Assembly (NCBI GenBank): GCA_041659045.1
Contig: JBAZZB010000001.1
Coordinates: forward strand, 518,234 to 582,233
DNA: 64,000 nt
Reading direction: 5' to 3'
From: Patescibacteria group bacterium
GTDB taxonomy: Bacteria > Patescibacteriota > Patescibacteriia > SG8-24 > DYFX01
The translations under genes were made by a program, and so were the position numbers. The notes beneath the pieces are model-generated. The model had not been told where the DNA came from. It saw only the letters and a program-made list of their open reading frames with translations, and did no database searches. Of this stretch, positions 3,912 through 58,947 are shown piece after piece (the first letter of the stretch is position 1; every line of letters starts with the position of its first letter).

Positions 3912-3912
3912 A

Positions 3913-5616: not shown

Positions 5617-6788
5617 AGACCAAAGCCGAACAAGGGGCCGGGACCGAGCGGGTTCATTCCCTTATCGACTTCAAGGCCGTCAGCATACCCATCAGCGTCC
5701 GTATCGGGATTCCAGGCATCAACGCCATAGAAAGCCTCCTGTGCGTCAGAGAGCCCATCATTGTCGGTATCCGTATTCTGCGCGGCAACACCCGGAAGAG
5801 TCGGCAACGGGGTTTTTTTCTCTTCTTCGGAAGCAACCTGTGCAAGCGCGCGCGACCCAGACAAGCTCAAACGTTTTTCAAAAAGCGGACCAAGCACCTT
5901 GTCGAGATCTTCCGCTTCCGGCGCGTCGACGCGAACAGGTTTCCCTTCATTTGAGAAGACGAGCGTACCAGCAGCAGCACCTCCCTTGCCGTCCTGACCG
6001 AGCGAAGTGCCAAGCGTGATCTGTTTTACCTTGTGTGTTCTCGCGTCGATCCAGATTTCACCGACCGGACGGTTCCACTGCATCAACTCACCCGTCACAG
6101 CCAACACATCGTCGGACGTGATCTCGCGGCCAAGACTCAATTCGCGACTCTTGAGCATCAAGGCCGAAACGACTTCCATATTCAACTCGACGGCGTAATG
6201 AAAAGATTTTGCGCCACCGATCGTTTCCTTAGGAAGTTTTTCGACAACGGTAAAAAGGTCGACCGACCGCGCGCTTTGTTTCATTGTCTCGATAGCAGAC
6301 GCATCCAACGCGGGGTCTGGCGCGCCTGATGCGAGCAAAAGATCGATGAACGGCTGTCCGGCTTTCATCCATTTGCCCACAATACGACTCGCGTCGAGTC
6401 CCTGGACGCCTTCCACGCGCTGGAGGCGTACATAGTGCGTACCATCTTTGCGTCGAGCTTCACCCACCAGCTTCGCTTGTCCGCCGGAAGAGAGCCCTTG
6501 AGACAGTTCGAACATCGAAACCGAAGCCTGGCGCGTCGGATCGGTGCGATCAATATCCATGCGCACCACTATGTCGACTCCAGTTGCGCCCGCGACAACG
6601 CCATTCTCAAGCTCCTTCGGCAACCCGATGACTGTGGCGTTCAGATCAAGATGAAATGTTTTTTCTGCCAAAATATTCTTCGTCGCTTGGCGCAGGACCG
6701 CTTGCGGGTCGGGTTCACGCAAGAAAAAGAAAGCCGTCGCGACGGCGACAAGTCCGAATACTCCGAGAATGATGGCGCGTTTAGACAT
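5613..6788 (-). CDS. Membrane-anchored secreted protein with C-terminal thrombospondin type-3-like Ca-binding repeats
   Basis: N-terminal signal/TM (AIILGVFGLVAVATAFFFL). C-terminal DTDNDGLSDAQE and DTDADGYADGLE (DxDxDGxxDxxE). 4-nt overlap with the ftsI start. Confidence 0.55.
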   Translation of the reverse strand: MSKRAIILGVFGLVAVATAFFFLREPDPQAVLRQATKNILAEKTFHLDLNATVIGLPKELENGVVAGATGVDIVVRMDIDRTDPTRQASVSMFELSQGLSSGGQAKLVGEARRKDGTHYVRLQRVEGVQGLDASRIVGKWMKAGQPFIDLLLASGAPDPALDASAIETMKQSARSVDLFTVVEKLPKETIGGAKSFHYAVELNMEVVSALMLKSRELSLGREITSDDVLAVTGELMQWNRPVGEIWIDARTHKVKQITLGTSLGQDGKGGAAAGTLVFSNEGKPVRVDAPEAEDLDKVLGPLFEKRLSLSGSRALAQVASEEEKKTPLPTLPGVAAQNTDTDNDGLSDAQEAFYGVDAWNPDTDADGYADGLEVDKGMNPLGPGPLFGFGL

Positions 6789-19865: not shown

Positions 19866-19896
19866 CAAAAGAAAAACCCTCTCAAGGAGAGGGTTC
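19866..19896 (-). terminator. Rho-independent terminator after the class A PBP gene
   Basis: Minus strand: CCCTCTC-ctt-GAGAGGG followed by TTTTTCTTTTG. Confidence 0.5.
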
Positions 19897-22800: not shown

Positions 22801-23161
22801 CAATCGCTTCAGAACCAAGCCCCAGCCAGACAAGCTTGCCGGAACGCAGGATGTTCCAAAGCGCGATACCTACGGCGAGTATGACCGAAAGCCCGAAGGT
22901 GATACGACGGAACAGACGAAACTTCCAGAGGAAGATCGCCAACCGAGCGACCCAACTTCCCACGCGCTTCAACGACCTCCAGAGCGTATACAGCACCGGG
23001 AGGACGGCAAAAGCGAGAAGGAAAGCGATCCACAACGGCGTGCCGAGACGATCCGAGGTGACCAGGAGGGCCAGCGGAATCGCCAAGAGAACGACGTAGC
23101 CGATCATGACCTTGAACAGGAACACGCCACGCTCGAACTGCCGCTTGAGCCATTGCAACAT
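19895..23161 (-). CDS. Class A penicillin-binding protein (GT51 transglycosylase + transpeptidase) with a ~330-aa polytopic N-terminal membrane domain
   Basis: GT51 motifs EDKTFWEHDG and GASTITAQ. Transpeptidase motifs SSIK (SxxK), SLN and KTGTT. Multiple hydrophobic helices in residues 1-330 before the GT51 domain. Confidence 0.85.
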   Translation of the reverse strand: MLQWLKRQFERGVFLFKVMIGYVVLLAIPLALLVTSDRLGTPLWIAFLLAFAVLPVLYTLWRSLKRVGSWVARLAIFLWKFRLFRRITFGLSVILAVGIALWNILRSGKLVWLGLGSEAIGILGVLGAMFLSNPPERVIARLRTWRVSPGYTGVFNVVRIVLWFLGILVIDLWLYAMVESLLWRNWLSFPESWFEGLPWALDFILAPLQRPLTLAILPPIVFTIFALLARPPYLRRAAPRKVLTIRKVPPELLLDFKRFSGTIPMYTIERVPKCVEFTAPDGRVGEAGERFVFLRMLCTGFAFGTFLTCAIATHFAEAFVDDMSDDLSSVESYQPVVSSVVFDRNHQVMCSFSLENRTWADLENIPRHVQEAFIASEDKTFWEHDGLDPQGIIRAGLHNLNHGEARQGASTITAQVIKQVVLKDSSPTIERKLKQFFLAVRLERELASKHGRHKAKQKILEVYLNHVYLGKNAYGVEAASETYFGKSVQNLTVAEAAILAGLPKAPSLDSPDGHFDRAKVRQRYVLGRMLETGAITKAQHEEALRAPIVLIKRAHAFNMATAPYACEETRKFVERTFGYDAVYKQGLIIDTTFDLTLQRKAQAAERFGLLDLERRLGFAGPEGHDKDADAVCENPSGWVADGALEANARVIARERSSITLCVRGYAFPLDADDVDRVAKWERAKSGRKLIVGDLLTVRIETRTNDDGTSERFALTARRTGGKDHPEALQAAIVAIDPQSGELRALVGGYDWNENQFNNATQARRQTGSSIKPYVYLTALVNGKTVVSTELDAPICLSTASGPWCPTNYSGPKTTRVFYGTVDLVTALAKSLNSVSVRLLVEVGLDKAIGTMRALGIRSPIVRVFPLAVGTPELTLWEHTAGYATILSNGRMMATQKEGYAPGIFVKSVKSFVRNSSGHSELRTIYMAPERPKTQAVPSGDAYAMTELLRGVVEFGTGTRAKKLRRPVVGKTGTTNNFWDAWFMGGTSDLVVGTWVGRKTPTPIAREATGGVVALPIWIAFMESAFPVPPDGQPFSTPPRDFPIPDDVTLLRRGTTDNGRTGLLPFQRGKTPEAYLDAPNADFGEGAFD

Positions 23162-40985: not shown

Positions 40986-43900
40986 TCATGAGGCAGTTTT
41001 GAGTTCAATATCGTCAGCAATGAAGACGGGCTCTTTCTCGTGGGTGAAATCAATCTCTTTCGTGCGTGCCGCTTGGTATCCCGCGCGATCAGCCGTCAGG
41101 AAATAGCGGTTCTGACCGGCCAGGAAGGCGTAGCGTCCGCGTGCATCGGTCACCTGGGCTTCAAGCACTTTCTTGTACGCGGATTCGACAATACGAACGA
41201 CCACTTGCTTCACGGGCTTCTTCTGCTCATCGGAAACCGTTCCCCAGCTCTTAGGACGCCGCCCTCTGGCCAGGCGCATGAAGAGAAGCATGAAGGCGAG
41301 CTGTGTCATGAGTGCAATCACCTGCTCCCAACGAGGCGTTGCGGCATAGCTTGCAAGCGCAAGTCCGGGACCGATCGACGCGACGGCCCATTGCACGCGC
41401 AAGCGCGAGGAAGCCGCGAGAATGTCGATGTCCGTGCGCGTTTCACCCACAGGTTCGAGCGGCACGTTTTTGGCGATCATACCTTCCGGAGTTTCGATCG
41501 GGCCACCAAGGTGCAGGTCAGAGAAGGGGCCGTCGGCCACGCCGCTGATCGTTCGGTTCGGAGGAAAGGCAAAACCGGGCTTCTGTACTTCAAGCAGGTA
41601 GCTGCCGGGCTGTGGCAAGAAAAGATAGCGACCATACCGATCGGTGACGCGCGTTGAAACCGTTTTTTGCGTGACAGGGTCGACAAGACGGACGACAGCA
41701 AGATCCACCGGCAGCTTCGTGCCGACGTTATAGATGGTGCCGTAAGCCTTGCGACGGCGACGATCGAGCAGCGCGAGCGGTTGCGTAAAGAGGAACATCG
41801 CGTATCGCGCGTAGCCGGCAAAGCCCACAGCCGAAGTCGTCGCGACTGCGACCGCCGCAGTTGTAGCTGGGGTCACGACAACGTCGTTCGTTGTTTGCGC
41901 CACTGCGCTTCCGCGAATGGCTTTCATATTGTCGCGTACCGATCGCGCGATAGCGCCGATGACAGGCGTGTTCTGTGTCGCCTCCGCGAGACGATCAAGA
42001 ATCGGCGTTGCCGTAACGGCGTTCAATGGTCGCGCGATCCATTCAAGCAACGTCAGTCTTGTCTCTGTTCCGCTCGTCGTCCCGCTTCCAGACGTCGGTA
42101 CCGTTGGCGGTGTCGTTCCGGTCGTCGGACGTTCGGGATCGGTTCCGACAGGTGTCGGTTGCTCGGTTGTCGGTGGCACCGTAGGCTCTGACGATACTGG
42201 AGGTGCCGGTGTCGTTCCTGGTGTGGGGGCTGTACTTGGCTCAACAGGTGCCGTCGGCTGAGCAACTACCGGAGGAACGGTCGGTACCGTCGGTGGCAGC
42301 GTAACGATCGGTTCCACAGGCGTTACGGGAAGTTGTACAACATCCGTCGTCTGTTCAGAAATCGTCGTCGAGAGCCCATCCGCGGTGATGACGGCGCGAT
42401 TAAAAAGCGACCTCGCGCCGGGTAACACCCGCACGTGCACGCTGACATACCGGCGCATGCTTGCGGCAAGAGAACCAAGATTGTATGTCGCGGTACGCGT
42501 CAACGAATCAAAAGCGGCGTCATCTGTATCGGCGAGGTCCGTCAGAATCACACCATCAATCGACAAAGATGATCCAACGTATGACGTGCCGGGTGGAATT
42601 GTTTCTGCTACCACAACATTTCGCGCGGTCTGGCCGCCGACGTTCGACACGTCAATACGATAGGTAACGATATCACCAGTCTTCGGTTCGGGCGTACCGC
42701 TCGAAAATTCCAAAGAAGACACGTTCACGCCGACGCGCACCTCAGCCAGTACAGCAGCATCCTCTGGCACAGTCGTAGGGGGTACAACGGGCGGCGTCGA
42801 TGTTGTTGAGCCCGGCGCTCCTGATCCGCTTTGCGCTATTGTGAACGAAGCATCGCTCACGTCCGTCGCCAAAATCGTGTCACCTCCAGCGAGGGCTTCA
42901 GCGCGAATGCGCGCGGAATCAGCGGCCACGCTCGGCACCATCCAGGCGTAGACGCCCGCGGAAGGACTCACATTCGAAGCAATCACCGCGTACGTACTCC
43001 CGTTATCTACGGAGTACGAGAGTCGGACGTTCTGCACCTGAATACCCTGCGTCGTGAAAAATACGTTATATGTCGATCCACCCGCGAGCAGTTCGCTGCC
43101 GTTCGGCTGGCCAACCACAATGGAAGGCGTCGGGTTACCACCGCCTCCGCCTCCTCCCCCACCACCTCCGCCTGAAGCCGTAATCGAAAAGTCTGCGTTC
43201 GCGGTATCGCTCGCAAGTGTTACGTTGTTCGCGTCTTGTGCCTCGATTTTGATGCGCGCTGTGGTCGTCGTGATGTTGTTGACCGTCCAGGAATACGGCG
43301 ATGCTGCGTCGGATGCAGTAACAAGCGTCGGGAACGTGGAGCCCGAGTCCGTAGAAAGCGTGATGCGGTAGTGATCAACCAAACCAGCATTCGTCCACGT
43401 GATCGACGAAGAATCGCCGCCCGTCAAACTTCCTCCGCCATTCGGTGCCGTCACGGTTACTGTCGCCGCACCGTCAGAATCGGCGATCATTTGCACGCGT
43501 GTTTGTGAAACCGTGTTGACGGACTGGAAAGCCGTCACAATACCAGCGTCACCATTGGAGACAGCCGTCGGAATATCTTCAGCAAAACCGGCGCGAGCCG
43601 CAACAACGATTCCGTTTGCGGTCCACATCGCCGTGCCAGTTGAGTTCAGACGTTGTGCGTACACGTCGCCACCAGCCTCCGTTCTTTCATCCTTCCAAGC
43701 CGCTACAACACCGGCGCTATTGTCTGTTGCAATACTGAATTGCGCCCCTTGGTTATCAGCAGCATTGCTCACGACCTCGCCGTTCGCTGTCCACTGCGCG
43801 ACGCCGGAAGCATCGAGTCGTTGCGCGTACAGATCGCTCGTGACGCCTCCGCGCATATCTTTCCACACCACGATCGACCCGGTATCCGAAGCGATGACTT

Positions 43901-46277
43901 TCGGCACGGTTTGATTATCTGCTGCAGTCACAACATCAACTCCGCCCGCAGTCCATTGCACGTCGCCGGCTTCGTTATACATTTGTGCCTTGACGTTGGC
44001 GTTTCCAAGACTGCCGGGATCCGCGCTCCAGGCGACGACGACTCCGCCCGAGACGGCCGTAAGAGCTGTTTCGATGGCGGTGTTTTCTGTCGTGATGACT
44101 TCGCCGTACGTTGTCCAACCGGAAACAACCGCTCCGTTTGCCGCTGCTAGGCGCACGACGCGTAAGTCGGGATCGGTCACGTCGTTATCGATGTGCTGCC
44201 AAGCGAGATACGCGCCGCTTGCGCCGTCAGAAGCGATCGCGCCATATTCATGAGCGACCGTACCGGAAGGCAGCGGATCAGATGCTTCAACTCCTGTTGC
44301 GCCCCACGGAACACCGGCCGCAGATGTCACGCGCACGCCATACATCCTGTTATTCACCTCATACATCACAATGGCGCCACCCGCTCCGTCCGTGACGGTA
44401 CCCCAGACATCGACCGTCGAGCCGGACGGTGAAATACTCAATCCTGATGCCGACCAGCCGCCGACCACGACCCCCGAAGAATCAAAACGTTTGATTTTCA
44501 AAACCTCGGAACCCATATAATCCTTCCAGATGACGTATACGCCACCTGAACCATCGCCTAACAAGCCAAGCACCTCTTGCCCGATACCGATCGCAATCGC
44601 CACGCCGCTCGCTGTCCACTGTGAGACACCTGAGGAGTTCACTTTTTGCAAAAAAACTCTCGTTCCGTTATGGCGGTTATCATTCCAAGCAAGAAAATAA
44701 TTTCCTGAACCATCGGCCGCCACGCGCGGCACGAGCTGCTCTGCCGTAACGGAGCCTGGTCCATCTGGAAGCGTGAAGCCGCGCGTACCGTTAAATTGCG
44801 GAGCGCCAGTCGCGTCATCAAGTAACTGGCCAACCGCGTCATCCTCAAAGCTCGCTTGGATCTGTGCCGCAATCACGAAGTCGCCTGCCGTTGTCGTGAC
44901 AGCATACGGCATCGTAATCGGGAAAAAGTTCGTGGCCGTATCCGCATCAATCGCGAGCACGCCACCGGACGTCCAAGCCACGGTACCGTCAGAATTGACG
45001 CGCTGGGCAATCACGTCGCGTGTGCTTGCACCCGAATATTGGCGCATAATGGCGATGAGCACGTCACCCGAACCATCACCCGCCGTCACCGCGATCGTAG
45101 GATAATCTTCACGATCGGCAGTACTCGTCAGCGCCAAACCAGAGCCGGAAAACTGGGCGACACCAGAGCTATTGAGTTTTTGTACGTACAAATACGGGTT
45201 GGCGTAGTAGAAGACCATCGCGTCGGTTCCACTCATCGCAACCTTGGGATTTGCATTGGCGTTTGCCGTGCTGACCTGGACACCATTCGCAGTCCAAACC
45301 TGGTCACCGGCACTATCGATCTGTTGGGCGTAAACACCGTTAGCGCCTGAACGACTATCTTCCCAAACCGCGACAAGGCCTCCGGAACCGTCCGGTACGG
45401 CCTGCGTCATGCGATCCTGTGCGTCGGCAGCCGACGTGATTGCTTTTCCGTTCGCTGTCCACTGCACCGTACCAGCGCTGTTAATACGTTGCGCGTATAA
45501 ATCTTCATCCGCGCCGCGGAGATCCTCCCACGCGATGATCGCGCCGCCGGAGCCGTCCGTAACGATGAGCGGATCGCGCTGGTTATTGGCGGCCGCGCTA
45601 ATGACCACACCGGTCGCAGTCCACTGTTTGGCGCCTAAACCATCCAAGCGCTGCGCGCGCACGTCGCCGCCGATCACGTACGCAACGATAATACCGTCGG
45701 AGCCGTCAGGAAGAGCGACCCCTGACGTTTCGGAACTCGCGCCAACATCAGCAACCGCCAACCCGCCCGCCGCCCATTGCACGGCGCCGGAAGAATCGAG
45801 TCTTTGCGCGTAAATGTCGTTGGCACCATTCGAAATACCGTAGAGCACAATGACGCCGCCTGAGGTATCTGCGACTACTCGCACGCGCTGATCACCGAGA
45901 CCACTTGCTCCATCGTAGACCGTGATGCCTCCGCCCCATTGCGCCGCGCCGGTGTCATCAACTTTTTGAGCGTAGATGCCGCCCCCGACCGCGTTCGTGA
46001 ACACGAAGACGCTATACCCATCGCTCGTGCGAACGACAGGGCCACTGGTTGATTGTTCAAAAATAACTGACTCTTGGTCGCCCGCAAGGAAACCGTTTGT
46101 GGCAGCAGCAGCAACAACACCGTTTGCCGTCCAACTTGCAGAGCCGCTCGCCAAAGCCGTTGAGACAACGTTACCGAAAACAATCGCCGTGATCAGAACC
46201 GTCACGGACGCAAAAACAAACCGAGCGCGCGCCCAAGCTTTTACCGCAATCCAAAGACGGTTTATTCGATACTTCAC
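40986..46277 (-). CDS. Giant cell-surface protein A (~1760 aa)
   Basis: Architecture from N- to C-terminus: signal peptide; ~13 tandem ~50-aa W/YAQR beta-propeller-like repeats; DUF11-like domain; two ~90-aa Ig-like (Kre9/KNH-like) domains; Gly12 tract; Pro/Thr-rich linker; C-terminal TM plus prealbumin/CarboxypepD_reg-like anchor module shared with gene B. Start uncertain (GTG ~46277); the ORF-track start at 46556 would overlap the upstream gene. Confidence 0.7.
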   Translation of the reverse strand: MKYRINRLWIAVKAWARARFVFASVTVLITAIVFGNVVSTALASGSASWTANGVVAAAATNGFLAGDQESVIFEQSTSGPVVRTSDGYSVFVFTNAVGGGIYAQKVDDTGAAQWGGGITVYDGASGLGDQRVRVVADTSGGVIVLYGISNGANDIYAQRLDSSGAVQWAAGGLAVADVGASSETSGVALPDGSDGIIVAYVIGGDVRAQRLDGLGAKQWTATGVVISAAANNQRDPLIVTDGSGGAIIAWEDLRGADEDLYAQRINSAGTVQWTANGKAITSAADAQDRMTQAVPDGSGGLVAVWEDSRSGANGVYAQQIDSAGDQVWTANGVQVSTANANANPKVAMSGTDAMVFYYANPYLYVQKLNSSGVAQFSGSGLALTSTADREDYPTIAVTAGDGSGDVLIAIMRQYSGASTRDVIAQRVNSDGTVAWTSGGVLAIDADTATNFFPITMPYAVTTTAGDFVIAAQIQASFEDDAVGQLLDDATGAPQFNGTRGFTLPDGPGSVTAEQLVPRVAADGSGNYFLAWNDNRHNGTRVFLQKVNSSGVSQWTASGVAIAIGIGQEVLGLLGDGSGGVYVIWKDYMGSEVLKIKRFDSSGVVVGGWSASGLSISPSGSTVDVWGTVTDGAGGAIVMYEVNNRMYGVRVTSAAGVPWGATGVEASDPLPSGTVAHEYGAIASDGASGAYLAWQHIDNDVTDPDLRVVRLAAANGAVVSGWTTYGEVITTENTAIETALTAVSGGVVVAWSADPGSLGNANVKAQMYNEAGDVQWTAGGVDVVTAADNQTVPKVIASDTGSIVVWKDMRGGVTSDLYAQRLDASGVAQWTANGEVVSNAADNQGAQFSIATDNSAGVVAAWKDERTEAGGDVYAQRLNSTGTAMWTANGIVVAARAGFAEDIPTAVSNGDAGIVTAFQSVNTVSQTRVQMIADSDGAATVTVTAPNGGGSLTGGDSSSITWTNAGLVDHYRITLSTDSGSTFPTLVTASDAASPYSWTVNNITTTTARIKIEAQDANNVTLASDTANADFSITASGGGGGGGGGGGGNPTPSIVVGQPNGSELLAGGSTYNVFFTTQGIQVQNVRLSYSVDNGSTYAVIASNVSPSAGVYAWMVPSVAADSARIRAEALAGGDTILATDVSDASFTIAQSGSGAPGSTTSTPPVVPPTTVPEDAAVLAEVRVGVNVSSLEFSSGTPEPKTGDIVTYRIDVSNVGGQTARNVVVAETIPPGTSYVGSSLSIDGVILTDLADTDDAAFDSLTRTATYNLGSLAASMRRYVSVHVRVLPGARSLFNRAVITADGLSTTISEQTTDVVQLPVTPVEPIVTLPPTVPTVPPVVAQPTAPVEPSTAPTPGTTPAPPVSSEPTVPPTTEQPTPVGTDPERPTTGTTPPTVPTSGSGTTSGTETRLTLLEWIARPLNAVTATPILDRLAEATQNTPVIGAIARSVRDNMKAIRGSAVAQTTNDVVVTPATTAAVAVATTSAVGFAGYARYAMFLFTQPLALLDRRRRKAYGTIYNVGTKLPVDLAVVRLVDPVTQKTVSTRVTDRYGRYLFLPQPGSYLLEVQKPGFAFPPNRTISGVADGPFSDLHLGGPIETPEGMIAKNVPLEPVGETRTDIDILAASSRLRVQWAVASIGPGLALASYAATPRWEQVIALMTQLAFMLLFMRLARGRRPKSWGTVSDEQKKPVKQVVVRIVESAYKKVLEAQVTDARGRYAFLAGQNRYFLTADRAGYQAARTKEIDFTHEKEPVFIADDIELKTAS
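43137..43172 (-). repeat. GGN trinucleotide tract encoding 12 consecutive Gly
   Basis: Protein GGGGGGGGGGGG between an Ig-like domain and the next domain; DNA is imperfect GGN repeats. Confidence 0.7.
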
Positions 46278-46347
46278 GCGTGTATACAGAGGTCTCTTCA
46301 CAGCATGCAGTGTACCACTTTTAGGCAAATCCTTCTTGTTCGAACCT

Positions 46348-47823
46348 CTACACCGACACCACCGTTTTAAGGGTGATATCTCGAGCAATAAAAGCCGGAT
46401 CCTTTGAACGGCTGAAATCCACCGTTTCTGTCCTGGCTGCCTGATGCCCCGCCCCCTCAGCCGTGACGAAGTATCGATTCTGTCCGACCAAGAAGGCATA
46501 GCGACCCGAAGCGTCCGTGACCTGAGCTTCCAACACCTTATTGTAGGCATCTTCAATCACGCGCACGACGGCTTGTCGCACGGGCTGCCCTTGCGCGTCG
46601 CGTACGACGCCCCACCCCTTCGGCTTTCGCTTGTTGGCGATGCGAGAGAAAATAACGGTCAGCGCCAGCTGAAGCGCCAGAGCACCTACCTGTTCCCAAC
46701 GCGGCGTAACGACATAACTTGCCACCGCGAAACCGGGGCCAAATGCCGTAAACGCCCATTGCAAACGGAGACGCCCTGCCGCGGCGATAATTTTGGAATT
46801 GGTACGCGAGTCCTCTTTCGGTTCAAGTGGGATGTTTTTCGCGATAACACCATCCGAAGCAACGACGCTTCCCCCAACATGCAGGTCCGCGTACGGACCA
46901 TCGGCCACACCAGAGATCGTACGCACTGGAGGGAAGACGAATCCGGACTTCTGCACTTCGATCTGGTACGCACCGGGAGGCGCGAGGAAGAGATACCGTC
47001 CGAGACGGTCCGTGACGCGCGTCGCGATTACTTTTTGTCCCGTCGCATCAAGAAGCCGAACCGTCGCAAGATCAACAGGGAGTTTGGTCCCGACGTTGTA
47101 GACAGTGCCGTATGCTTTTCTACGGCGACGATCGAGCAGAGCAAGCGGCTGCGTCACAAGGAACATCGCGTAACTGGCGAAACCCGTGAAACCAACTGCG
47201 GACGTTGTCGCGACAGCAGCCGCCCCAGCGACGGCCGGTGTCAGTACGACTGTGTTGGTTGTTTGCACCGTTTCATTCGTACGCAAAGCCTTCACGACTT
47301 CGCGTGTCGCCTGAACAACCTCACGCACAATAGGAATATTTTTTGTGACGTTTGCCGCGATGTCCAGAAGCGGCGTCTCTTCAAGAGGTGCTTCTTCGCG
47401 CACAAACCACTCAATCAACGAAAACGAAGCGATCTCCTGAGCCGGTGACGGCACGGAAATTTCGCCTTGCGGAGACGGCTCGACAGATCCGCCTCCAGAC
47501 GATCCACTTGCGCCGCTTCCTTGCCCACCACCACTTGATGCTGGTGGTTCCGTATCTATAGACGTAACCGGACGTTCCGGAGTCGGGCGCGGGGTCGGTT
47601 TCGTTACCGGCGGTTCTTCTTCCGCTTCATCGATCGGTGTTTCTGTCGAGGCTGGAGGCTCAACGACCGGTTCTTCTGGCGTTACCGGTTCAGATGGAGT
47701 TTCAGGAGGCGTTTCAATAGGCGGCGTTGGTTCGACAGGCACTGTTGGGTCCGGAGTTTCAACGGGCGGTTCGGTTGGTGGCAGCACCGGCGGCTCAACA
47801 CCTGTACCAACAATCGTAAACAC
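46348..47823 (-). CDS. C-terminal portion of giant surface protein B
   Basis: Pro-rich linker, TM and CarboxypepD_reg-like anchor module. Reading frame is separated from the upstream portion by a frameshift. Homologous residue-for-residue to the C-terminus of protein A. No signal peptide and no RBS of its own; its reading frame continues upstream to ~47925. Confidence 0.7.
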   Translation of the reverse strand: MFTIVGTGVEPPVLPPTEPPVETPDPTVPVEPTPPIETPPETPSEPVTPEEPVVEPPASTETPIDEAEEEPPVTKPTPRPTPERPVTSIDTEPPASSGGGQGSGASGSSGGGSVEPSPQGEISVPSPAQEIASFSLIEWFVREEAPLEETPLLDIAANVTKNIPIVREVVQATREVVKALRTNETVQTTNTVVLTPAVAGAAAVATTSAVGFTGFASYAMFLVTQPLALLDRRRRKAYGTVYNVGTKLPVDLATVRLLDATGQKVIATRVTDRLGRYLFLAPPGAYQIEVQKSGFVFPPVRTISGVADGPYADLHVGGSVVASDGVIAKNIPLEPKEDSRTNSKIIAAAGRLRLQWAFTAFGPGFAVASYVVTPRWEQVGALALQLALTVIFSRIANKRKPKGWGVVRDAQGQPVRQAVVRVIEDAYNKVLEAQVTDASGRYAFLVGQNRYFVTAEGAGHQAARTETVDFSRSKDPAFIARDITLKTVVSV

Positions 47824-47843
47824 ACTGTCACTTACGTCCGTTG

Positions 47844-50800
47844 CTAAAATACTATCTCCACCGCCAAGCCCCTCCGCTTTGAAAAGCGCGTTGGTTGAAG
47901 AAACGTTCGGAACTGTCCAAGCGTAAAACCCGCAGACGGACTTCCTGAAGACGTGACGACGTTATAGGCAGATCCTCCATCGGCGGAATACGACAAGCGA
48001 ATGTTGTGGATCTGTGTGCCTTGCGACGACCAGAAGACGTTATACGTTTCGTTGGCGTGCAGTTGCTCTCCCCCATTTGGACGACTCAACGCAATTGCGG
48101 GCGAAGGATTGGAGCCTGAACCGCCTGTCGATGGTGCCGTCGTCGTAATAGAAAAGTCGGCGTCAGAAGTATCGCTTGTCAAAACGGAATTGCCGCTATC
48201 AAGCGCCTCGACCTTGATACGAGCAAGCGACGTCGTTACGGAACTCACGGTCCAAGAATACGGGCTACCCGCGAGGTTGCTCGTCAAAACGGTCGGGAAC
48301 GTGGAGCCCGAGTCGGTGGAAAGCGAGACGCGGTAGTGATCAGCTGGCCCCGCGGACGTGAAGGTGACGGAATAGGGATCACCACCGGTGAGCGATTGGC
48401 CGCCGTTCGGAGCCGTTACCGCAACGATCGAAGTGGCAATAGAAAAGTCCGCGTTCGAGGTATCGCTCGCCAAGACGACGTTGCCACTATCGAGCGCTTC
48501 AACTTTAACGCGCGCCGTCGAGGTGTTGAGACTGTTCACCGTCCACGAATACGGACTGCCCGCCGTGCTGCTCGTGATACTTGTTGGAAACGTGGATCCA
48601 GAATCGGTCGAGAGCGAGATTCGATAATGATCGACGCTGCCTACGCCCGTGAACATGATTGAAGACGACGCGCCTCCAGTAAGGCTTTCGCCGCCGTTCG
48701 GCGACGTAACCGTCACGGTTGGAGGATTGTTGTAGCCATACACCGTTCCGGCGCTACCCGCGACCGCCGCACCCGTACCACCTTTCGCGCCGCCCGTGGC
48801 CGTGGAAGTTCCGGAGCCCGTGAGCGTCACGAAGTAGGCCGCGATGCGTCCACCACCACCGCCGCCGCCGCCGTTCGCAGTCGTGCCAGCACCCGTACCG
48901 CCATTGGCCGTGACGTTTGCGTTCAAAATAGCGTGGGTGACGTCATACCAAATCGAGCCGCCGGAGCCGCCGCCGCCAAGATCCGTGGTTCCAAGGCCGT
49001 TCGTACCGTTCGCCGAAAGCGTGCCATCTACAGTGAGCGTATCGGTCAAAACAATCTTGATCGCGCCGCCACCCGGCCCGCCTTCGGCAACCGCCGCACT
49101 CGTCGTATCGGTTCCACCCGCAGAACCGAGGTCGACAGGGGAAGTACTACTGCCGTACGTCGCACTGCCGCCTGCGGCGCCAGAAGACGAAGCGCCGCCC
49201 GCACCGCCATAGCCTCCGCCGCCGCCACCTGTCCCGTTATCCGTTCCTTGCGCGTATCCTTCGCTGCTGGAAAAACCTTTTCCAACAACACTCACGGAAC
49301 CGCCGGCTTGAATATCCAAACTCCCCGCCGAAATATTCAGCGAGGTGTGGTGTGCCGACGTGTTTGTCGCGCTGGTCACAAGGCCGCCAGAACGCACGGT
49401 AATCGTTCCAGACACCGTCAAACTTGTGGTCGATGAAGAGCTGACGTAGGAACCTCCAGCATCAACAACAAGCGAAGCGAGACCAGCCGTGAAGTTTGTG
49501 TTGCTCGATGTAAAAGATGCGTTCTTGATCGTCAGCGCGGTTGTCACGTCGAAAAGTCCAGAATGCACGACATTGAGACCATCGATGGTTTGCGTCGCAC
49601 GACCATTCAGCGTACCGCCGCTTTGAATCGTGAGTGATGGCATAACGGAACCTCCACCCAAGATCGTCGTGCCGCTCGCAAGCGTGAGCGAGGCGCCGGT
49701 AGGAATGCTGTAGTGCGCGCCGTTCTTGATCGTGATCGCATCAAAGGAAAGGCTGGACGCGGCTATTTGGGTTGTAAAAGCCGTGGATGCCTGGCTGCCG
49801 TTATCAACGACAAGGCTGCCATTTGTTTGCGCAGTCGACTTCGTGTAGACCGTGCCGGCGCCACCGACTTGTCCGCTATTCGCCTTCGCTCCACCTTGCG
49901 AAGTCTTCGTGATCGTCGAAGAATCCGTCGTGTAGTAGATAGCGATGCGGCCACCGCCGCCTCCGGCGCACGTACAGCTCGCATACGCGTTACCTCCATT
50001 GGCCGTGATCGTACCGTTACCAGAAAGCGTGTCGGCTTGCAGCCAGACCGAACCTCCGGCCGCGCCGCCACTGCTCACGGTCGCGCTCGTACCGTTCGCA
50101 CTCATCGTACCGGAATGAGACAGAGTTCCGGCTGTAACGATTCTCAACGCGCCGCCACCGTTGACCGTGGACCCCGTAGCGCCGGAACCAAGATCAGTCG
50201 GCTGTGTCACGGAACCATATGTACCGCCAGCGGTACCGCTGAAGGCAAGACCACCGTTACCGCCATAACCCGCGCCCGTCGATGTTGATCCACCACCAGG
50301 CGCGCCACTGCCGCTACTGGTACCATAACCCTTTCTACTGACATCAACCGATGCTCCTGAGGCAATCGTCACGGTTCCTGTTGCTGAAATATCGGCAATA
50401 TATGCGCGCGTCGCCGCGGTGTTCGTAGCATGCGTAATGACAGCGCCAGAGTTCGCTGTCAACGTGTTCAGATAGAAAACACCGAGGCCTCGCTGTTCGT
50501 ATTTGCTGCCGCTGCCAAACGTGAAATCTTCCGCACGTCCCGCTGTACCGCTCGAAAAGACAGCGCCTTCGGGATACGGAGCGTACATCGCGTTCACGAA
50601 CGTCGCAGTCGTCAACGTGCGCACATCGCCGTAGTGAACAAGGTTCAGCGCACTGAAGGCAAAGCTCGAACTCTGGAAGACGAACAAGCCGTCAACTGTG
50701 AGCGTGCCGGCCACCGTCCCGCCGCCGCCGGAAATCGATCCTGTAGAGGTCGCGTACGACAAATTCATTCCGGCGCTCACGCGGTAATTTCCTCCACCTT

Positions 50801-52814
50801 TCAGAACGATGGAATCGTAGACCTGCGGCCAAGCTGCCGATTGACTGCTTGCCGCGCCCGCGACGTTATTATTATCGAGCGTCAAATCGCCGAACGACTG
50901 GGCGTCGGATTTCATGTAGATCGTGCCGGCGCCGCCTTTTTCGTAGCCGCGGACGTTACTGCCGCGCGCTTGGCGCGTGAACGTCGGGGTTGTGCCTGCG
51001 TACTGCACGGCGATCATGCCACCGCCGCCGGAACCGGTGAGAGCCGAACTCGGAGCGCCACCATTCGCCGTAATTGTACCGCTACCGTTCACGGTACTGC
51101 CGGAAGCGTTGATCCAAACCGAGCCGCCCGCTCCACCAGCACCGTCCGTGCCGGTCGTAGGCACGTCACGAGCATCAGCACTGATTGTGCCGTCGACCAT
51201 GATCGTACCGCCTGAGTTCACGGAAAGCTTGATCGCTCCGCCGCCATACCCCGTTGGAGTGGCGCTCGTACCTGTTACATCTCCTCCACCCGAGCCGAGT
51301 TCAACTGGGCGTGTAACAGAGTCGTACGCGCGACCGCCGGTATATCCGGCATACGTCGGATCTCCAGATCCGCCGTCGCCGCCGTGCGCGCCGCCCCCAC
51401 CAATGCCGTCTGAACCCTTGCCCGGACCTTGCTTAGCCACGTATCCGCGTTCGGAGGCCGTAATGACGCCGCCGCTGCTCAGCGTGATCGTGCTCGTGGC
51501 GCTCACGTCAAAATGATGAAGCTTGCCACTTGCCGTCGTCGCGCTCGTGTTGGTCGCGTGCGTGATCGTACCACCGGAACTCACTGTCAGCGTATTCACG
51601 AACAATGTCGGAAGATTCTGGGTGACCAACCAACCGCCGGAACCGATCGTCAGGTCGTCGACACGATTACCCGCGCCGGAGGTGAACGTCGCCGTCGTCG
51701 TGTTCAGGGTGTACACGCCGTTTATAACCGTCACGTCCACCGTCGTTCCAATCGCACCTTCGTGCGTTACATTGATCCCGTTAAACGTGACCGCAGCCGT
51801 AGGACCGTTGAACGTGCCGTTGATAATCAAAACGGGTTGCGCACTACCGCCAGTTGTTATCGTGCCGGCTGCTGCGACGCTGAGCGTGTACCCTGCTGGA
51901 ATCACATACTCTGAACCCTTCCAAATCGTTACGTTGTCGTACGTCTGGCTCGCTGTTGTGACCTGCTGTGTATAGGCAACGTTAGACGATGTGTTGTTGT
52001 TATCAACGATCAAATCACCATTTGTCGCAGATGCCTGCTTGCGATAAATCGTACCGGCTCCGCCGTTTTCGCCTGTCACACCGTTCGTGCCGCCGTAGGC
52101 TTGAACGGGGCCTGTTGCCGAAAACGTCGTGTAGTAAAGAGCAACACGTCCACCACCACCGGAACCGGAAGACGTCACGTGGCTGTTTCCGCCATTTGCC
52201 GAAATCGTGCCGCCGCCCGTGATGGTCGCAGCATCAATCCAAATTGAACCACCCGCTCCACCGCCTGCCGAAGCAGAGCTGGCGGTATTTCCTCCAGCCG
52301 AAATGGTTCCGGCCACAACGACCGTGCCACCAGTCGCCACAAGCTTGATCGCGCCGCCTCCGGCCACGCCACCCAACGCACCGACACCATTTCCGCCACC
52401 GGAACCCAAGGTGACTGGAGCTGTCACTGAACCATAGGCCGTTCCGCCGAGCTGTCCCGTGGATGAGCTGCCGCCATTGCCGCCATGCCCACCACCAGCA
52501 AAACTTGCGCCAGCACCCGTACCAGCCGCCGCGCCGTATCCTTGACCCGTCGCCGTGAGGGTACCGTCGATGCGAAAATGATCAGCGTTGATAATGACTC
52601 CGGCACCACTACTGCTTTGTGCCGTCACCGTCACGCCGGGGTTCACCGTCAGCGTGCCGCCGAATGTATACGTACCGGCAGCGAATTCGCAGCTTACGGT
52701 CAAGACAACGTCCGTACCGCTTGAGGTGCACGCAGCCGCGTGCGCATGTTTCGGAAACGCGCTCGTGATTACGATCAGCGAAATCAAACCGATGACAAGC
52801 GGGCGCGTTTCCAT
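47844..52814 (-). CDS. N-terminal portion of giant surface protein B
   Basis: Signal peptide (AFPKHAHA|AAC). About six ~230-aa repeats with GGAI-type motifs (GGGAIKL, GGALRIV), suggesting a parallel beta-helix. Three Ig-like ~90-aa domains homologous to those of protein A. The frame ends 28 codons after the SPSAG position, where the paralog continues. Confidence 0.7.
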   Translation of the reverse strand: METRPLVIGLISLIVITSAFPKHAHAAACTSSGTDVVLTVSCEFAAGTYTFGGTLTVNPGVTVTAQSSSGAGVIINADHFRIDGTLTATGQGYGAAAGTGAGASFAGGGHGGNGGSSSTGQLGGTAYGSVTAPVTLGSGGGNGVGALGGVAGGGAIKLVATGGTVVVAGTISAGGNTASSASAGGGAGGSIWIDAATITGGGTISANGGNSHVTSSGSGGGGRVALYYTTFSATGPVQAYGGTNGVTGENGGAGTIYRKQASATNGDLIVDNNNTSSNVAYTQQVTTASQTYDNVTIWKGSEYVIPAGYTLSVAAAGTITTGGSAQPVLIINGTFNGPTAAVTFNGINVTHEGAIGTTVDVTVINGVYTLNTTTATFTSGAGNRVDDLTIGSGGWLVTQNLPTLFVNTLTVSSGGTITHATNTSATTASGKLHHFDVSATSTITLSSGGVITASERGYVAKQGPGKGSDGIGGGGAHGGDGGSGDPTYAGYTGGRAYDSVTRPVELGSGGGDVTGTSATPTGYGGGAIKLSVNSGGTIMVDGTISADARDVPTTGTDGAGGAGGSVWINASGSTVNGSGTITANGGAPSSALTGSGGGGMIAVQYAGTTPTFTRQARGSNVRGYEKGGAGTIYMKSDAQSFGDLTLDNNNVAGAASSQSAAWPQVYDSIVLKGGGNYRVSAGMNLSYATSTGSISGGGGTVAGTLTVDGLFVFQSSSFAFSALNLVHYGDVRTLTTATFVNAMYAPYPEGAVFSSGTAGRAEDFTFGSGSKYEQRGLGVFYLNTLTANSGAVITHATNTAATRAYIADISATGTVTIASGASVDVSRKGYGTSSGSGAPGGGSTSTGAGYGGNGGLAFSGTAGGTYGSVTQPTDLGSGATGSTVNGGGALRIVTAGTLSHSGTMSANGTSATVSSGGAAGGSVWLQADTLSGNGTITANGGNAYASCTCAGGGGGRIAIYYTTDSSTITKTSQGGAKANSGQVGGAGTVYTKSTAQTNGSLVVDNGSQASTAFTTQIAASSLSFDAITIKNGAHYSIPTGASLTLASGTTILGGGSVMPSLTIQSGGTLNGRATQTIDGLNVVHSGLFDVTTALTIKNASFTSSNTNFTAGLASLVVDAGGSYVSSSSTTSLTVSGTITVRSGGLVTSATNTSAHHTSLNISAGSLDIQAGGSVSVVGKGFSSSEGYAQGTDNGTGGGGGGYGGAGGASSSGAAGGSATYGSSTSPVDLGSAGGTDTTSAAVAEGGPGGGAIKIVLTDTLTVDGTLSANGTNGLGTTDLGGGGSGGSIWYDVTHAILNANVTANGGTGAGTTANGGGGGGGGRIAAYFVTLTGSGTSTATGGAKGGTGAAVAGSAGTVYGYNNPPTVTVTSPNGGESLTGGASSSIMFTGVGSVDHYRISLSTDSGSTFPTSITSSTAGSPYSWTVNSLNTSTARVKVEALDSGNVVLASDTSNADFSIATSIVAVTAPNGGQSLTGGDPYSVTFTSAGPADHYRVSLSTDSGSTFPTVLTSNLAGSPYSWTVSSVTTSLARIKVEALDSGNSVLTSDTSDADFSITTTAPSTGGSGSNPSPAIALSRPNGGEQLHANETYNVFWSSQGTQIHNIRLSYSADGGSAYNVVTSSGSPSAGFTLGQFRTFLQPTRFSKRRGLAVEIVF
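48080..48660 (-). repeat. Tandem ~270-nt DNA repeats encoding Ig-like domains
   Basis: Opposite-strand ORF translations at 48001-48336 and 48388-48627 are near-identical (...TVQEYGLPA.LLV..VGNVEPESVESE.R). A third copy lies in gene A at ~43200-43370. Confidence 0.6.
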
Positions 52815-53540: not shown

Positions 53541-54611
53541 TCAGAAGCCGGTGTTTTGTTTAAACAGGGTTGTTCCCATGAAGATCGTCGAATCGTTTGT
53601 CGGATCGATCAAGAGATTCGTCGCCGCGCGCGTTGTCGGAAGTTTGGACGTGGTCCATTTGCCGCCGCCGTCGACCGTGCGATAGAGCGTGTTGATCGTG
53701 CCGTACGCGATGAAGTTCGAATCTTTCGGGCTGACCGCCAACGAATAGATCACGGTTGAGCCGGTAGGCGTCAGAAGCGTAATCGGCTTCCAGGTCGCGC
53801 CGCCGTCGGTCGAGCGCAGAAGTCCGTAGTTCGAGGCCACAAGAACGCTGTTTCCGCGGGCCACGTCCTCGGCAATAATCACGTTATCGAGCGCGCCGGC
53901 ATACTCCCCCATTCCGGGACTCAAGTCAACCCAGGTCGCGCCGCCGTCGGTTGTTTTCCAGACTCCCTTGTTGCGGGTGCCGACATACATGACGCGGGAA
54001 TCTGACGCTGTCGCGAGGATCTGTCGCACCTCATTTTCAAAGCGGTGAATCGGTGTCCACGAACCACCAGCGTCGCCACTCTTCAAAAGATCGCCTTGGC
54101 TTGTGGCGGCGTAGATATTCATCGGGTTGAAACGATCGATCAAGACAGCATTCACTCTCGTTTCAGCGCGTGAATCAAAGTAGACGTTCTCCCACGTGCG
54201 AGAGCAATCCGTCGTGCGCATGACGCGGTTACCGGTTGAAACGTATACCGTGCACTTGTCGGCCTGGCTCACCGCCGCCGAAAGCACGCGCACTGCGCCG
54301 AGGCCGGGGGCACCCTGCCACGATTCGCCGGCGTCATAGGAATAGAACAAACCGCCTTCCGTGCCGGCGTAGATCGCTTTCTTGTCGGTCGGGTCAAAAG
54401 CCAGCGCCGTCACGTTCGCGTTCGCGAAGTTGCGCGCCTGGCCAACCGTGGCAATCGACGATTTCAAAACCCATTTTGAACCGCGATCCGTGGAACGAAA
54501 CACCCCTCCGTCCGTACCGGCGCTGCCGCCCGTACCGGTGATTTGGATGCAGCCCGCGCCAAGCAACAGCACGACGGACGCAGCGACGAGGAAACGTGAT
54601 GGCATTCTCAT
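53541..54611 (-). CDS. BNR/Asp-box repeat beta-propeller lipoprotein (Ycf48/sialidase-like)
   Basis: Lipoprotein signal LLLGAGC. Seven SxDxGxxW repeats (STDRGSKW, SYDAGESW, TTDCSRTW, SGDAGGSW, TTDGGATW, STDGGATW, TVDGGGKW). Confidence 0.75.
   Translation of the reverse strand: MRMPSRFLVAASVVLLLGAGCIQITGTGGSAGTDGGVFRSTDRGSKWVLKSSIATVGQARNFANANVTALAFDPTDKKAIYAGTEGGLFYSYDAGESWQGAPGLGAVRVLSAAVSQADKCTVYVSTGNRVMRTTDCSRTWENVYFDSRAETRVNAVLIDRFNPMNIYAATSQGDLLKSGDAGGSWTPIHRFENEVRQILATASDSRVMYVGTRNKGVWKTTDGGATWVDLSPGMGEYAGALDNVIIAEDVARGNSVLVASNYGLLRSTDGGATWKPITLLTPTGSTVIYSLAVSPKDSNFIAYGTINTLYRTVDGGGKWTTSKLPTTRAATNLLIDPTNDSTIFMGTTLFKQNTGF

Positions 54612-57939: not shown

Positions 57940-58947
<1,008 letters not shown>

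Follow-up and report, generated by a model that had tools for sequence, protein, structure and literature searches.

A lineage-wide C-terminal cassette that probably anchors giant exported proteins in the cytoplasmic membrane of Patescibacteria

The window, a stretch of 64,000 nucleotides from the genome of a Patescibacteria group bacterium (contig JBAZZB010000001.1), encodes two giant proteins, A and B, from tandem genes on the minus strand. As the sequence-only reading had proposed, the two share a C-terminal module (~330–360 aa). The two copies are 61% identical over 359 aa (BLASTP, 55% over 451 aa), and within the window the module is present only in these two genes. The passengers that precede it are unrelated to each other by sequence comparison. 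A and B are probably Sec-exported surface proteins of Patescibacteria (CPR), and the conserved module, which recurs across the lineage, probably serves as the cassette that anchors them in the cytoplasmic membrane. The best reading of the sequences is that this cassette is a lineage-wide variant of C-terminal membrane anchoring that is undescribed as a unit; a search of family libraries and literature returned no description of the cassette as such. The domain architecture, the size and spread of the family, the variety of passengers, the asymmetry of charge and the lack of known sorting signals are direct observations; from them we infer how the cassette lies in the membrane, that it acts as an anchor, and whatever mechanical or docking function it may have.

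Protein A starts at ~46301 or at 46277, which is the JGI start (1763 aa); position 46556, given by the ORF lister, was rejected as the start. The features of A are listed by their positions in the window.

40986..46301, minus strand: protein A, 1771 aa from GTG 46301, stop codon at 40986-40988
46143..46301, minus strand: N-terminal signal peptide with a basic n-region, hydrophobic FVFASVTVLITAIVFGNVVSTALA and the end ...ALASG (read from sequence)
43464..46151, minus strand: ~15 blade repeats of ~55 aa, DGSGGxIVAWxD...YAQRxxxxGxxQWTANGV (HMM repeat census)
42825..43466, minus strand: two Ig-like domains with a poly-Gly stretch between them, homologous to the Ig-like domains of B (sub-cut-off Kre9_KNH and Big_7 matches)
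42378..42698, minus strand: DUF11 domain (PF01345, E 3.6e-10; TIGR01451, E 2.9e-13)
42063..42332, minus strand: Pro/Thr-rich linker, presumed wall-spanning stalk (read from sequence)
41886..42062, minus strand: helical juxtamembrane region, start of the module (AF2 helices at low to moderate pLDDT; family alignment)
41766..41882, minus strand: hydrophobic segment 1, VVVTPATTAAVAVATTSAVGFAGYARYAMFLFTQPLALL, putative single membrane crossing (36 uncharged profile columns; flank charges)
41745-41765, minus strand: basic cluster DRRRRK, after hydrophobic segment 1
41451..41744, minus strand: CarboxypepD_reg beta-sandwich 1 (PF13620; AF2 pLDDT 85-92; Foldseek matches of the prealbumin/CnaB type)
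41268..41432, minus strand: helix-turn-helix hydrophobic hairpin with the turn TPR (AF2 helices H212-242 and H246-266)
41250-41267, minus strand: basic cluster RGRRPK, after the hairpin
40989..41246, minus strand: CarboxypepD_reg beta-sandwich 2 (best stretch of the PF13620 match; AF2 pLDDT 84-95)

The passenger of A is a beta-propeller according to the predicted model. AF2 returned the repeat region as an all-beta structure (pTM 0.81) with ~4 strands per 54-aa repeat, and the best 50 Foldseek matches in the PDB are all beta-propellers, including CylK, the CV39L lectin, TolB, prolyl oligopeptidases and neuraminidases. The initial description of ~13 beta-propeller-like YAQR repeats was therefore right about the fold and short on the count, since the HMM repeat census counted 14 complete ~55-aa repeats as well as partial copies. 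The passenger has 1922 homologs, many of which are Bacteroidota proteins that end in a T9SS C-terminal domain. The family-consensus repeat matches PF03640 (Lipoprotein_15, 'secreted repeat of unknown function') with 35.1 versus 24.4 bits, and protein A itself has no match to it at E≤0.1. PDB sequence searches with the passengers of A and B gave nothing useful. The DUF11 domain that had been assigned to A was recovered at residues 1202–1308, which pass the cut-offs of both PF01345 (40.6 versus 24.6 bits) and TIGR01451 (49.6 versus 24 bits). N-terminal to the module lie a Pro/Thr-rich linker and Ig-like domains, as described, but the Kre9/KNH label given to the domains is borderline: the three Ig-like domains of B together reach 25.9 versus 24.6 bits for Kre9_KNH (PF10342), a marginal match, and those of A reach ~16–19 bits, below the cut-off.

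Each of the modules of A and B contains a pair of uncharged 36-residue segments and a pair of CarboxypepD_reg beta-sandwiches. All four motifs quoted for the module in the sequence-only reading are present in the sequence, and the two CarboxypepD_reg motifs among its claims correspond to a PF13620 match on the A module in two stretches (53.3 bits versus a gathering cut-off of 32.3, E 3.5e-14). The homologs P0007, P0015 and P0022 match PF13620 in the same way. AF2 predicts two confident beta-sandwiches and a helical hairpin. Both sandwiches of the A module have the prealbumin/transthyretin-like fold (pLDDT ~84–95), and Foldseek aligns them with the transthyretin-like domain of carboxypeptidase D (5aq0) and the SusC N-terminal extension (9hfj) at target-normalized TM-scores of 0.7–0.8. 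Foldseek matches to the module domains also include SdrD, SpaA and SlaB (8qox_B). Neither Foldseek nor the PDB profile searches matched the whole module; they returned single prealbumin-type domains. Hydrophobic segment 1 is predicted with low confidence (pLDDT 39–48). In the family profile the central Pro of the hairpin is 96% conserved, and both flanks of the hairpin are basic. The conserved GRYAFL and VTD motifs of the module may reflect only the fold. The C-terminal tails of family members are disordered, with many P, A, E and K residues, and those checked contain no extra TM segments after the module. Many members carry short conserved motifs in these tails (K[IV]PWE[LV]Q.L, DAEHAHP and MHEDYYDLDSL).

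Protein B had been read as one protein, but it consists of two ORFs in different frames that are joined only by a -1 shift.

47844..52814, minus strand: upstream ORF of B, 1656 aa, with signal peptide, Gly-rich passenger and Ig-like domains; ends 24 codons past the frameshift site
52737-52814, minus strand: signal peptide
48729-52733, minus strand: Gly-rich passenger, three full repeats and one partial repeat of ~365 aa
47925..47931, minus strand: frameshift site G_GGT_TTT (context gcG GGT TTT acg), inside the third Ig-like domain
46348..47823, minus strand: downstream ORF of B, 491 aa, identical to P0002; starts with the end of Ig-like domain 3
47425-47799, minus strand: Pro-rich linker
47254-47424, minus strand: juxtamembrane helices
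47134-47250, minus strand: hydrophobic segment 1
46819-47112, minus strand: sandwich 1
46636-46800, minus strand: hairpin
46351-46614, minus strand: sandwich 2

The passenger of B differs from its first description as ~6 GGAI repeats of ~230 aa with a likeness to chlamydial Pmp/autotransporter passengers. There are ~3.6 repeats of ~365 aa with 38–44% identity, and GGAI/GGAL occurs only four times, at residues 153, 525, 887 and 1249. The 1656-aa ORF matches no Pfam family even at E≤1 and full-length B matches none at E≤0.1, PF03797 and PF02415 included, so the autotransporter likeness lacks support. Only 35 homologs of this passenger were found.

In the present assembly, a single-base frameshift interrupts the reading frame of B. 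Only a -1 shift, or one restored T, at 47925-47931 rejoins the two ORFs, and the product reads ...SPSAGF|YAWTVPNV..., matching SPSAGVYAWMVPSV of A. The site is a perfect X_XXY_YYZ slippery heptamer in the zero frame, at which a -1 slip gives the conserved ...GFYAWTVP... exactly and the zero-frame product stops 24 codons on. A programmed -1 ribosomal frameshift at G_GGT_TTT would yield a released B of 1656 aa and an anchored B of 2155 aa. We regard this explanation as very improbable. The loss of one T from GGT TTT TAC accounts for the site equally well, and the B ortholog in L008 (76% identity, complete genome) continues in one frame through the site as an uninterrupted ORF that reads ..SSGYYAWAVP.. 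there. Folding of 82 nt downstream gave no significant stimulatory RNA structure (z -0.80), and another 'split' family member proved to be a scaffold gap. Near-identical strains were sought for comparison at this site; an exact-pattern scan of metagenome contigs gave none, and a protein-based scan gave only a relative with 35% identity.

A profile search for the module identified 2761 cluster representatives at E≤1e-30. The best 150 of the 2761 score >415 bits, and in these the whole module is matched and is nearly always C-terminal; the exceptions are the tandem CarboxypepD_reg arrays P0025 and P0034. The module was recovered from 78 genome loci in Magasanik-, Uhr-, Falkow-, Doudna- and Parcubacteria and Minisyncoccota. 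Where a module record names its organism, it is nearly always one of the Patescibacteria, and a few records are labeled as non-CPR taxa. The explanation of the A/B likeness as a mere local duplication was rejected because the family is far too large and widespread. Module-bearing proteins range from ~550 to 3700 aa; the host ORFs are 548–2736 aa long (median 1330) with the module at the C terminus, and among the 64 complete family ORFs, 57 carry a hydrophobic (signal) segment at the N terminus. Their passengers carry fn3, DUF11, Big_13, NHL, FG-GAP, BNR and Kelch domains. Genomes often hold several divergent paralogs of the module. No conserved partner gene lies beside it; its neighbors are housekeeping genes that differ between lineages. 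Of the proteins that seemed to consist of the module alone, only P0020 was verified; it lacks a signal peptide and has a 22-aa N-terminal tail and a lone hydrophobic stretch of ~17 aa. P0007, which follows a 1928-aa protein, is truly a gene of its own and encodes its own signal peptide. P0008 could be read either way, the gap to its upstream ORF at a contig end being 16 nt, and the apparent independence of P0015 arises from a scaffold gap of 100 N.

One slot in the gene order GT4-holB-BNR-RRF-giant gene-aaRS-M16-TIM-TPR carries a B-type passenger in L008, A-like repeats in L006 and a third type in L007. The 3' cassette is conserved, so that different passengers can apparently be recombined onto it, as seen at this one locus across relatives with the same gene order. 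The 78 loci, the ~2,700 representatives and the passengers swapped in this slot support the proposed scheme in which exchangeable passengers share one C-terminal membrane anchor.

The most likely topology, judged from the sequences, places the passenger outside with one membrane crossing and keeps both beta-sandwiches and the helical hairpin on the cytoplasmic side. We favor this arrangement because the flank charges fit the positive-inside rule. In 236 module sequences the net charge around hydrophobic segment 1 averages -1.25 before and +4.52 after the segment, the latter being positive in 100% of the modules. Segment 2 is flanked by +3.45 before (99% positive) and +4.06 after (100%), and its 5-residue turn has a net charge of +0.2. 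P0020 has a single hydrophobic stretch and no signal peptide, so the cytoplasm is the only plausible place for its domains. The prealbumin-like domains had been taken for surface or wall elements, but the charge asymmetry probably places them in the cytoplasm. This placement is unusual because CarboxypepD_reg domains are typically extracytoplasmic. The single crossing is likely rather than proven because segment 1 has 36 residues with internal Asn, Gln and Pro.

The same cassette could instead lie entirely outside, with both hydrophobic stretches forming re-entrant hairpins and the sandwiches and basic clusters facing the wall. There they would bind peptidoglycan or anionic wall polymers and form a wall-and-membrane anchor, which is essentially the original picture. 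Domains of the CarboxypepD_reg, SdrD_B and SpaA type are as a rule extracellular, as in the Foldseek matches to SdrD, SpaA and SlaB; the source organism makes peptidoglycan, and the 36-residue length and central helix-breakers of both hydrophobic stretches suit re-entrant hairpins. We nevertheless consider this arrangement unlikely. It would translocate three polybasic flanks (+3.5 to +4.5, in 99–100% of the 236 modules) and leave the uncharged turns in the cytoplasm, the inverse of the positive-inside rule. The second half of segment 1 (YLxFLFTQPLLLL, ~13–16 aa) is not long enough for a second crossing, and the lone hydrophobic stretch of P0020 also argues against it.

A different reading makes the module a cleavable sorting or secretion signal, like the T9SS C-terminal domain, LPXTG/sortase or PGF-CTERM/archaeosortase, which a dedicated enzyme would recognize and remove while passing the passenger to a lipid or wall acceptor. 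The module resembles the LPXTG/sortase signal in its C-terminal position on many unrelated passengers; that signal also ends diverse secreted adhesins, follows a Pro/Thr-rich wall-spanning stalk, and has a hydrophobic segment leading directly into an Arg/Lys cluster (stop-transfer/retention). The A/B module differs in running ~250 residues past the basic cluster, a stretch that includes two folded domains plus another membrane hairpin, and it bears no sign of cleavage or covalent wall attachment. Neither LP.[TSA]G nor NP.TG occurs anywhere in A or B, and there is no NCBIfam match of the TIGR01167 type. PEP-CTERM, PGF-CTERM and GlyGly-CTERM signals (exosortase, archaeosortase and rhombosortase) have no NCBIfam match at E≤0.1, and PEP or PGF strings occur only inside folded domains. 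The T9SS C-terminal domain of Bacteroidota (Por_Secre_tail, PF18962/TIGR04183) is likewise a beta-sandwich cassette at the C terminus of many unrelated passengers, and in many Bacteroidota proteins it is fused to a YAQR-type propeller as in protein A. Sandwich 1 of B alone matches TIGR04183 weakly, with 16.5 bits against a cut-off of 23 bits (E 0.006), and PF18962 has no match. The T9SS domain is without TM segments, is cleaved and needs an outer membrane, whereas the A/B module includes about three membrane helices and is found in Patescibacteria, which are generally regarded as having no outer membrane. Known signals of the TM-plus-basic type are all far smaller than the module, which comprises ~330 aa, two folded domains and three helices, and no processing enzyme is a conserved neighbor. 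These data make a cleavable signal quite doubtful. As the sequence-only reading had expected, Pfam, NCBIfam, PDB-profile and motif checks did not identify the module as a well-characterized sorting domain.

Two known anchors resemble the module in part. Sulfolobus SlaB and the haloarchaeal S-layer glycoprotein likewise contain beta-sandwiches and tether a large extracellular structure through a membrane anchor at the C terminus, but their sandwiches are extracellular and they have a single TM, whereas the sandwiches of the A/B module follow the first crossing and flank the hairpin. The best PDB sequence-profile match of the module is NOMO of the BOS complex (9c7v_B, E 1e-3), and a Pfam NOMO1-like family also matches. 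NOMO is a chain of prealbumin-like domains tethered, as in the module, by a C-terminal TM. The likeness is at the level of single domains, and the NOMO domains are lumenal and lack the hairpin and polybasic belts.

With the passenger outside and the sandwiches inside, a signal peptide would drive export of the passenger, a beta-propeller in A and a Gly-rich repeat array in B, followed by the Ig-like spacers and the Pro/Thr-rich stalk. Translocation would halt at the first hydrophobic segment and the RRKRK cluster. The last ~250 residues would remain in the cytoplasm and fold into two prealbumin-like (CarboxypepD_reg) beta-sandwiches, which the helix-turn-helix hairpin and two more basic belts would pin to the inner membrane face. 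The outcome would be a three-helix anchor with two folded cytoplasmic 'buttons' that resists being pulled out of the membrane. These buttons could also dock a cytoplasmic partner, although none of the neighboring genes is conserved in a way that would suggest one. A more speculative and rather improbable extension is that the sandwiches and tail motifs form an integrin-like docking platform that links giant adhesins to a cytoskeletal, motor or signaling protein and organizes host attachment in episymbiotic Patescibacteria. An adhesin role fits better than that of a lattice (S-layer) protein because of the several divergent paralogs per genome.

Patescibacteria account for a large part of the diversity of bacteria. 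To our knowledge all cultivated members live attached to other cells, and we know of essentially no account of what keeps their surface proteins attached. Some two to three thousand protein clusters bear the cassette, and a single genome often encodes several copies. It is so widespread that it offers a simple sequence handle for cataloguing the surface adhesins of Patescibacteria, and it gives a concrete hypothesis for their topology and anchoring. If the domains are truly cytoplasmic, they would be a candidate link from host contact outside to machinery inside, and the exchange of passengers at one locus probably offers a way for host range to vary.

Proteins A and B are encoded by tandem minus strand genes, and B, which the sequence-only reading took as a single open reading frame (ORF), is divided between two ORFs in different frames. 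The window lies on a 646-kb contig of JGI metagenome 3300037810, and both the module's relatives and the gene order conserved around it place the organism in the Patescibacteria/CPR.

Genes for proteins A and B
GTG 46301 (JGI start 46277) to stop 40986, minus strand: protein A, 1771 aa
47844-52814, minus strand: B upstream ORF, 1656 aa, terminating 24 codons past ...SPSAGF
46348-47823, minus strand, -1 frame: B downstream ORF, 491 aa, identical to the database protein P0002

The two proteins have a common C-terminal module with 61% identity across the final 359 residues (55% over 451 aa by BLASTP), and all of the motifs quoted for it in the sequence-only reading are present. Pfam identifies two CarboxypepD_reg domains (PF13620, E 3.5e-14, above cut-off) that are genuine members at the domain level. 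An AF2 model built from a 22-sequence alignment has two confident beta-sandwiches (pLDDT 85-95) separated by a helix-turn-helix (residues 212-242 and 246-266), and the region upstream of sandwich 1 is helical, hydrophobic, and poorly resolved. Structural (Foldseek) and profile searches of the PDB found nothing beyond matches to single prealbumin/CnaB/transthyretin-type domains (SdrD B, TIE, carboxypeptidase D, SpaA, NOMO, and SlaB), and neither search matched the whole module. None of the NCBIfam sorting-domain models scored above cut-off, the best being Por_Secre_tail at 16.5 bits versus a cut-off of 23, and no LPXTG, PEP, or PGF motifs were found. We found no Pfam or NCBIfam model, solved structure, or paper for the TM-sandwich-hairpin-sandwich unit.

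The passengers, the N-terminal parts of the proteins, begin with a signal peptide in both A and B. In A, residues 51-946 then comprise repeats of ~55 aa, of which 14 are full and a few partial; after these come two Ig-like domains, a DUF11 domain, and a Pro/Thr linker. Residues 51-514 were modeled by AF2 with a 40-homolog alignment (pTM 0.81) as ~4 strands per repeat, and the top Foldseek hits were all beta-propellers. With 1922 hits at E<=1e-5, this is a very large repeat family, whose typical fusion partner in Bacteroidota and other phyla is a T9SS C-terminal domain or a FlgD-type Ig domain. The repeat consensus matches PF03640 weakly, and protein A itself gives no match. B has Gly-rich repeats of ~365 aa, three full and one partial (38-44% identity), with GGAI/GGAL at residues 153, 525, 887, and 1249, followed by three Ig-like domains and a Pro-rich linker. 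These counts replace the ~13 repeats in A and ~6 repeats of ~230 aa in B proposed from sequence. The B repeat had no match in Pfam or the PDB and only 35 homologs, all unnamed; the suggested analogy to Pmp/autotransporter passengers finds no support, and the repeat may be a beta-helix.

The B ORFs can be rejoined only by a -1 shift at gcG GGT TTT acg (47925-47931, minus strand), in the middle of an Ig-like domain. The rejoined protein is 2155 aa, and its junction ...SPSAGF|YAWTVPNV... parallels ...SPSAGVYAWMVPSV... of A. Translation in the zero frame would yield a 1656-aa product without the anchor, and the heptamer G_GGT_TTT is a perfect X_XXY_YYZ, formally a -1 slippery site. However, the sequence downstream shows no striking stimulatory RNA structure (z -0.80), and the shift lacks conservation. 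In locus L008 (complete Patescibacteria genome CP129476.1), where the genes are ordered as in the window, the B counterpart is a single 2105-aa ORF (76% identity over 1572 aa) that reads in frame across the site (...SSGYYAWAVP...). Removal of one T from GGT TTT TAC gives the window sequence. Other window genes that could be compared with same-gene-order relatives are intact, and a search for a near-identical strain to decide the matter found none. We read the split as a one-base deletion, either real or assembly-derived, and consider programmed frameshifting very improbable.

When 1.84 billion representatives were searched exhaustively with the module profile, 10,710 hits reached E<=1e-3 and 2,761 reached E<=1e-30; the second figure is an upper estimate because P0025 and P0034 are tandem CarboxypepD_reg arrays. 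The best 150 hits (>415 bits) matched the whole module in all but these two, nearly always at the C terminus of proteins of 300-4000 aa. With one genome scanned per species, 78 loci were located in Magasanikbacteria, Uhrbacteria, Falkowbacteria, Doudnabacteria, Parcubacteria, Minisyncoccota, and unclassified Patescibacteria, with two or more copies in several genomes. Many further records (loci L006, L007, and ~30 others) bear the title 'uncultured Gammaproteobacteria'; because L006 and L007 have the Patescibacteria-type gene order of the window, these titles appear to be unreliable placeholders. A few records are labelled Binatia, Methylococcales, or Alphaproteobacteria. Complete ORFs were available for 64 members, and in these the module forms the C terminus of proteins of 548-2736 aa (median 1330); an N-terminal hydrophobic signal is present in 57. 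The passenger domains, found in 36 such proteins, include fn3, DUF11, Big_13, NHL, FG-GAP, BNR, Kelch, and lactonase-type domains. Giant genes occupy a conserved slot, GT4-holB-BNR-RRF-(giant gene)-aaRS-M16 peptidase-TIM-TPR. L008 has a B-type gene there, L006 an A-like repeat gene, and L007 a third type, and the window carries A and B together. We take the slot contents as direct evidence that passengers are exchanged on a constant 3' cassette. The proposal of a common anchor with exchangeable passengers was right and is strongly supported by these comparative data.

The BNR gene of the slot encodes a BNR/Sortilin-type beta-propeller protein (53541-54611, minus strand) two genes upstream of B, with RRF between, and is conserved at the same position in L006-L008. 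P0016 has a prepilin-type N terminus (GFTLIELLLVV) ahead of the module, a pilin-like passenger on the same anchor. Elsewhere in the window (11416-13197, minus strand), a 593-aa protein that combines a prepilin-type N terminus (MRHPRG|ITLVETIVG...) with a CarboxypepD_reg domain resembles a type IV pilin, and the ORFs beside it (~9.3-18.3 kb) may be a pilus cluster.

The module can also be encoded separately. In Uhrbacteria GCA_016187515.1 (locus L002, 1893-9293), it is a 430-aa protein (P0007) that carries a signal peptide of its own along with a Cys-flanked DNDGD motif and is encoded 322 nt downstream of the gene for a 1928-aa protein; thus, anchor and giant protein can be separate genes. The apparent split of P0015 from its giant gene (locus L086, ~5856-5955) is a 100-N run in an EEPII-repeat linker, not a frameshift, and warns against taking database 'stand-alone' module proteins at face value. 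A tail of 50-284 aa follows the module in 70 of 241 members (for example L051, L049, L061, P0029, P0133, and P0010). The tails are disordered, with an abundance of P, A, E, and K, and have no additional TM; the motifs K[IV]PWE[LV]Q.L, (L/I)QDAEHAHP, and MHEDYYDLDSL recur across lineages in some members.

Alignment of 236 modules to the profile revealed two uninterrupted runs of 36 columns with essentially no charge; a central Pro occurs in the second run in 96% of sequences. The five-residue turn in the middle of segment 2 has a charge of +0.2.

Net charge per 15-residue flank, and sequences with a net positive flank
Before hydrophobic segment 1: -1.25, 10%
After hydrophobic segment 1 (RRKRKxWG): +4.52, 100%
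Before hydrophobic segment 2: +3.45, 99%
After hydrophobic segment 2 (RRLAxxKPKSWG): +4.06, 100%

By the positive-inside rule, these charges predict an external passenger, one crossing, sandwich 1 inside, a hairpin whose minimal turn would lie outside, and sandwich 2 inside. The inverse topology, with everything outside, would expose all of the basic belts externally and leave the uncharged turns on the inner side, and the second half of segment 1 (YLxFLFTQPLLLL) is too short for a re-crossing. CarboxypepD_reg domains are normally extracytoplasmic, which counts against cytoplasmic sandwiches, as does the uncertainty of AF2 about segment 1. P0020 (locus L085, 4001-4924) is a verified stand-alone 307-aa protein with TM, sandwich, hairpin, and sandwich and no passenger; its gene has an in-frame stop 39 nt upstream of the start. 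It has a 22-aa N-tail, a single hydrophobic stretch of ~17 aa, and no signal peptide, and its domains can only plausibly be cytoplasmic. Its neighbors (DHODH, class I aldolase, FGGY kinase, and bestrophin-like) are not typical-looking for CPR, and P0020 may be an ancestral or non-CPR form of the cassette. On balance, cytoplasmic sandwiches are quite probable, and the earlier 'prealbumin-like anchor' most likely faces the cell interior.

In the mechanism we propose, the passenger would be exported by Sec, and segment 1 with its polybasic clamp would act as a stop-transfer signal, leaving the C-terminal ~250 residues inside as two beta-sandwiches. The helical hairpin and basic belts, expected to bind anionic lipids, would staple the sandwiches to the inner leaflet. 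These folded domains would resist pull-out from the membrane and could dock a partner. Outside, a helical juxtamembrane segment, the Pro/Thr stalk, and Ig-like spacers would keep the binding domain clear of the wall. Of these elements, the analysis shows the architecture, the distribution, and the charge pattern, and infers the topology, the anchoring role, and any mechanical or docking function. Peptidoglycan genes are present in the window, so the organism makes such a wall.

Peptidoglycan genes in the window
3913-5616, minus strand: PBP2-like
19895-23161, minus strand: PBP1A-like (transglycosylase and transpeptidase)
2634-4031, minus strand: Mur ligase
57940-58947, minus strand: MreB

In both A and B, it is the Pro/Thr stalk that would have to span this wall. 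The cassette resembles the membrane-retention half of an LPXTG signal in its order of stalk, hydrophobic segment, and basic cluster, and it shares with the T9SS C-terminal domain its place at the C terminus of many different passengers. However, the tests that define these two systems place it outside both, as do those for PEP/PGF-CTERM signals and autotransporters. We classify the cassette as a form of C-terminal membrane anchoring of surface proteins, relevant to CPR cell biology.
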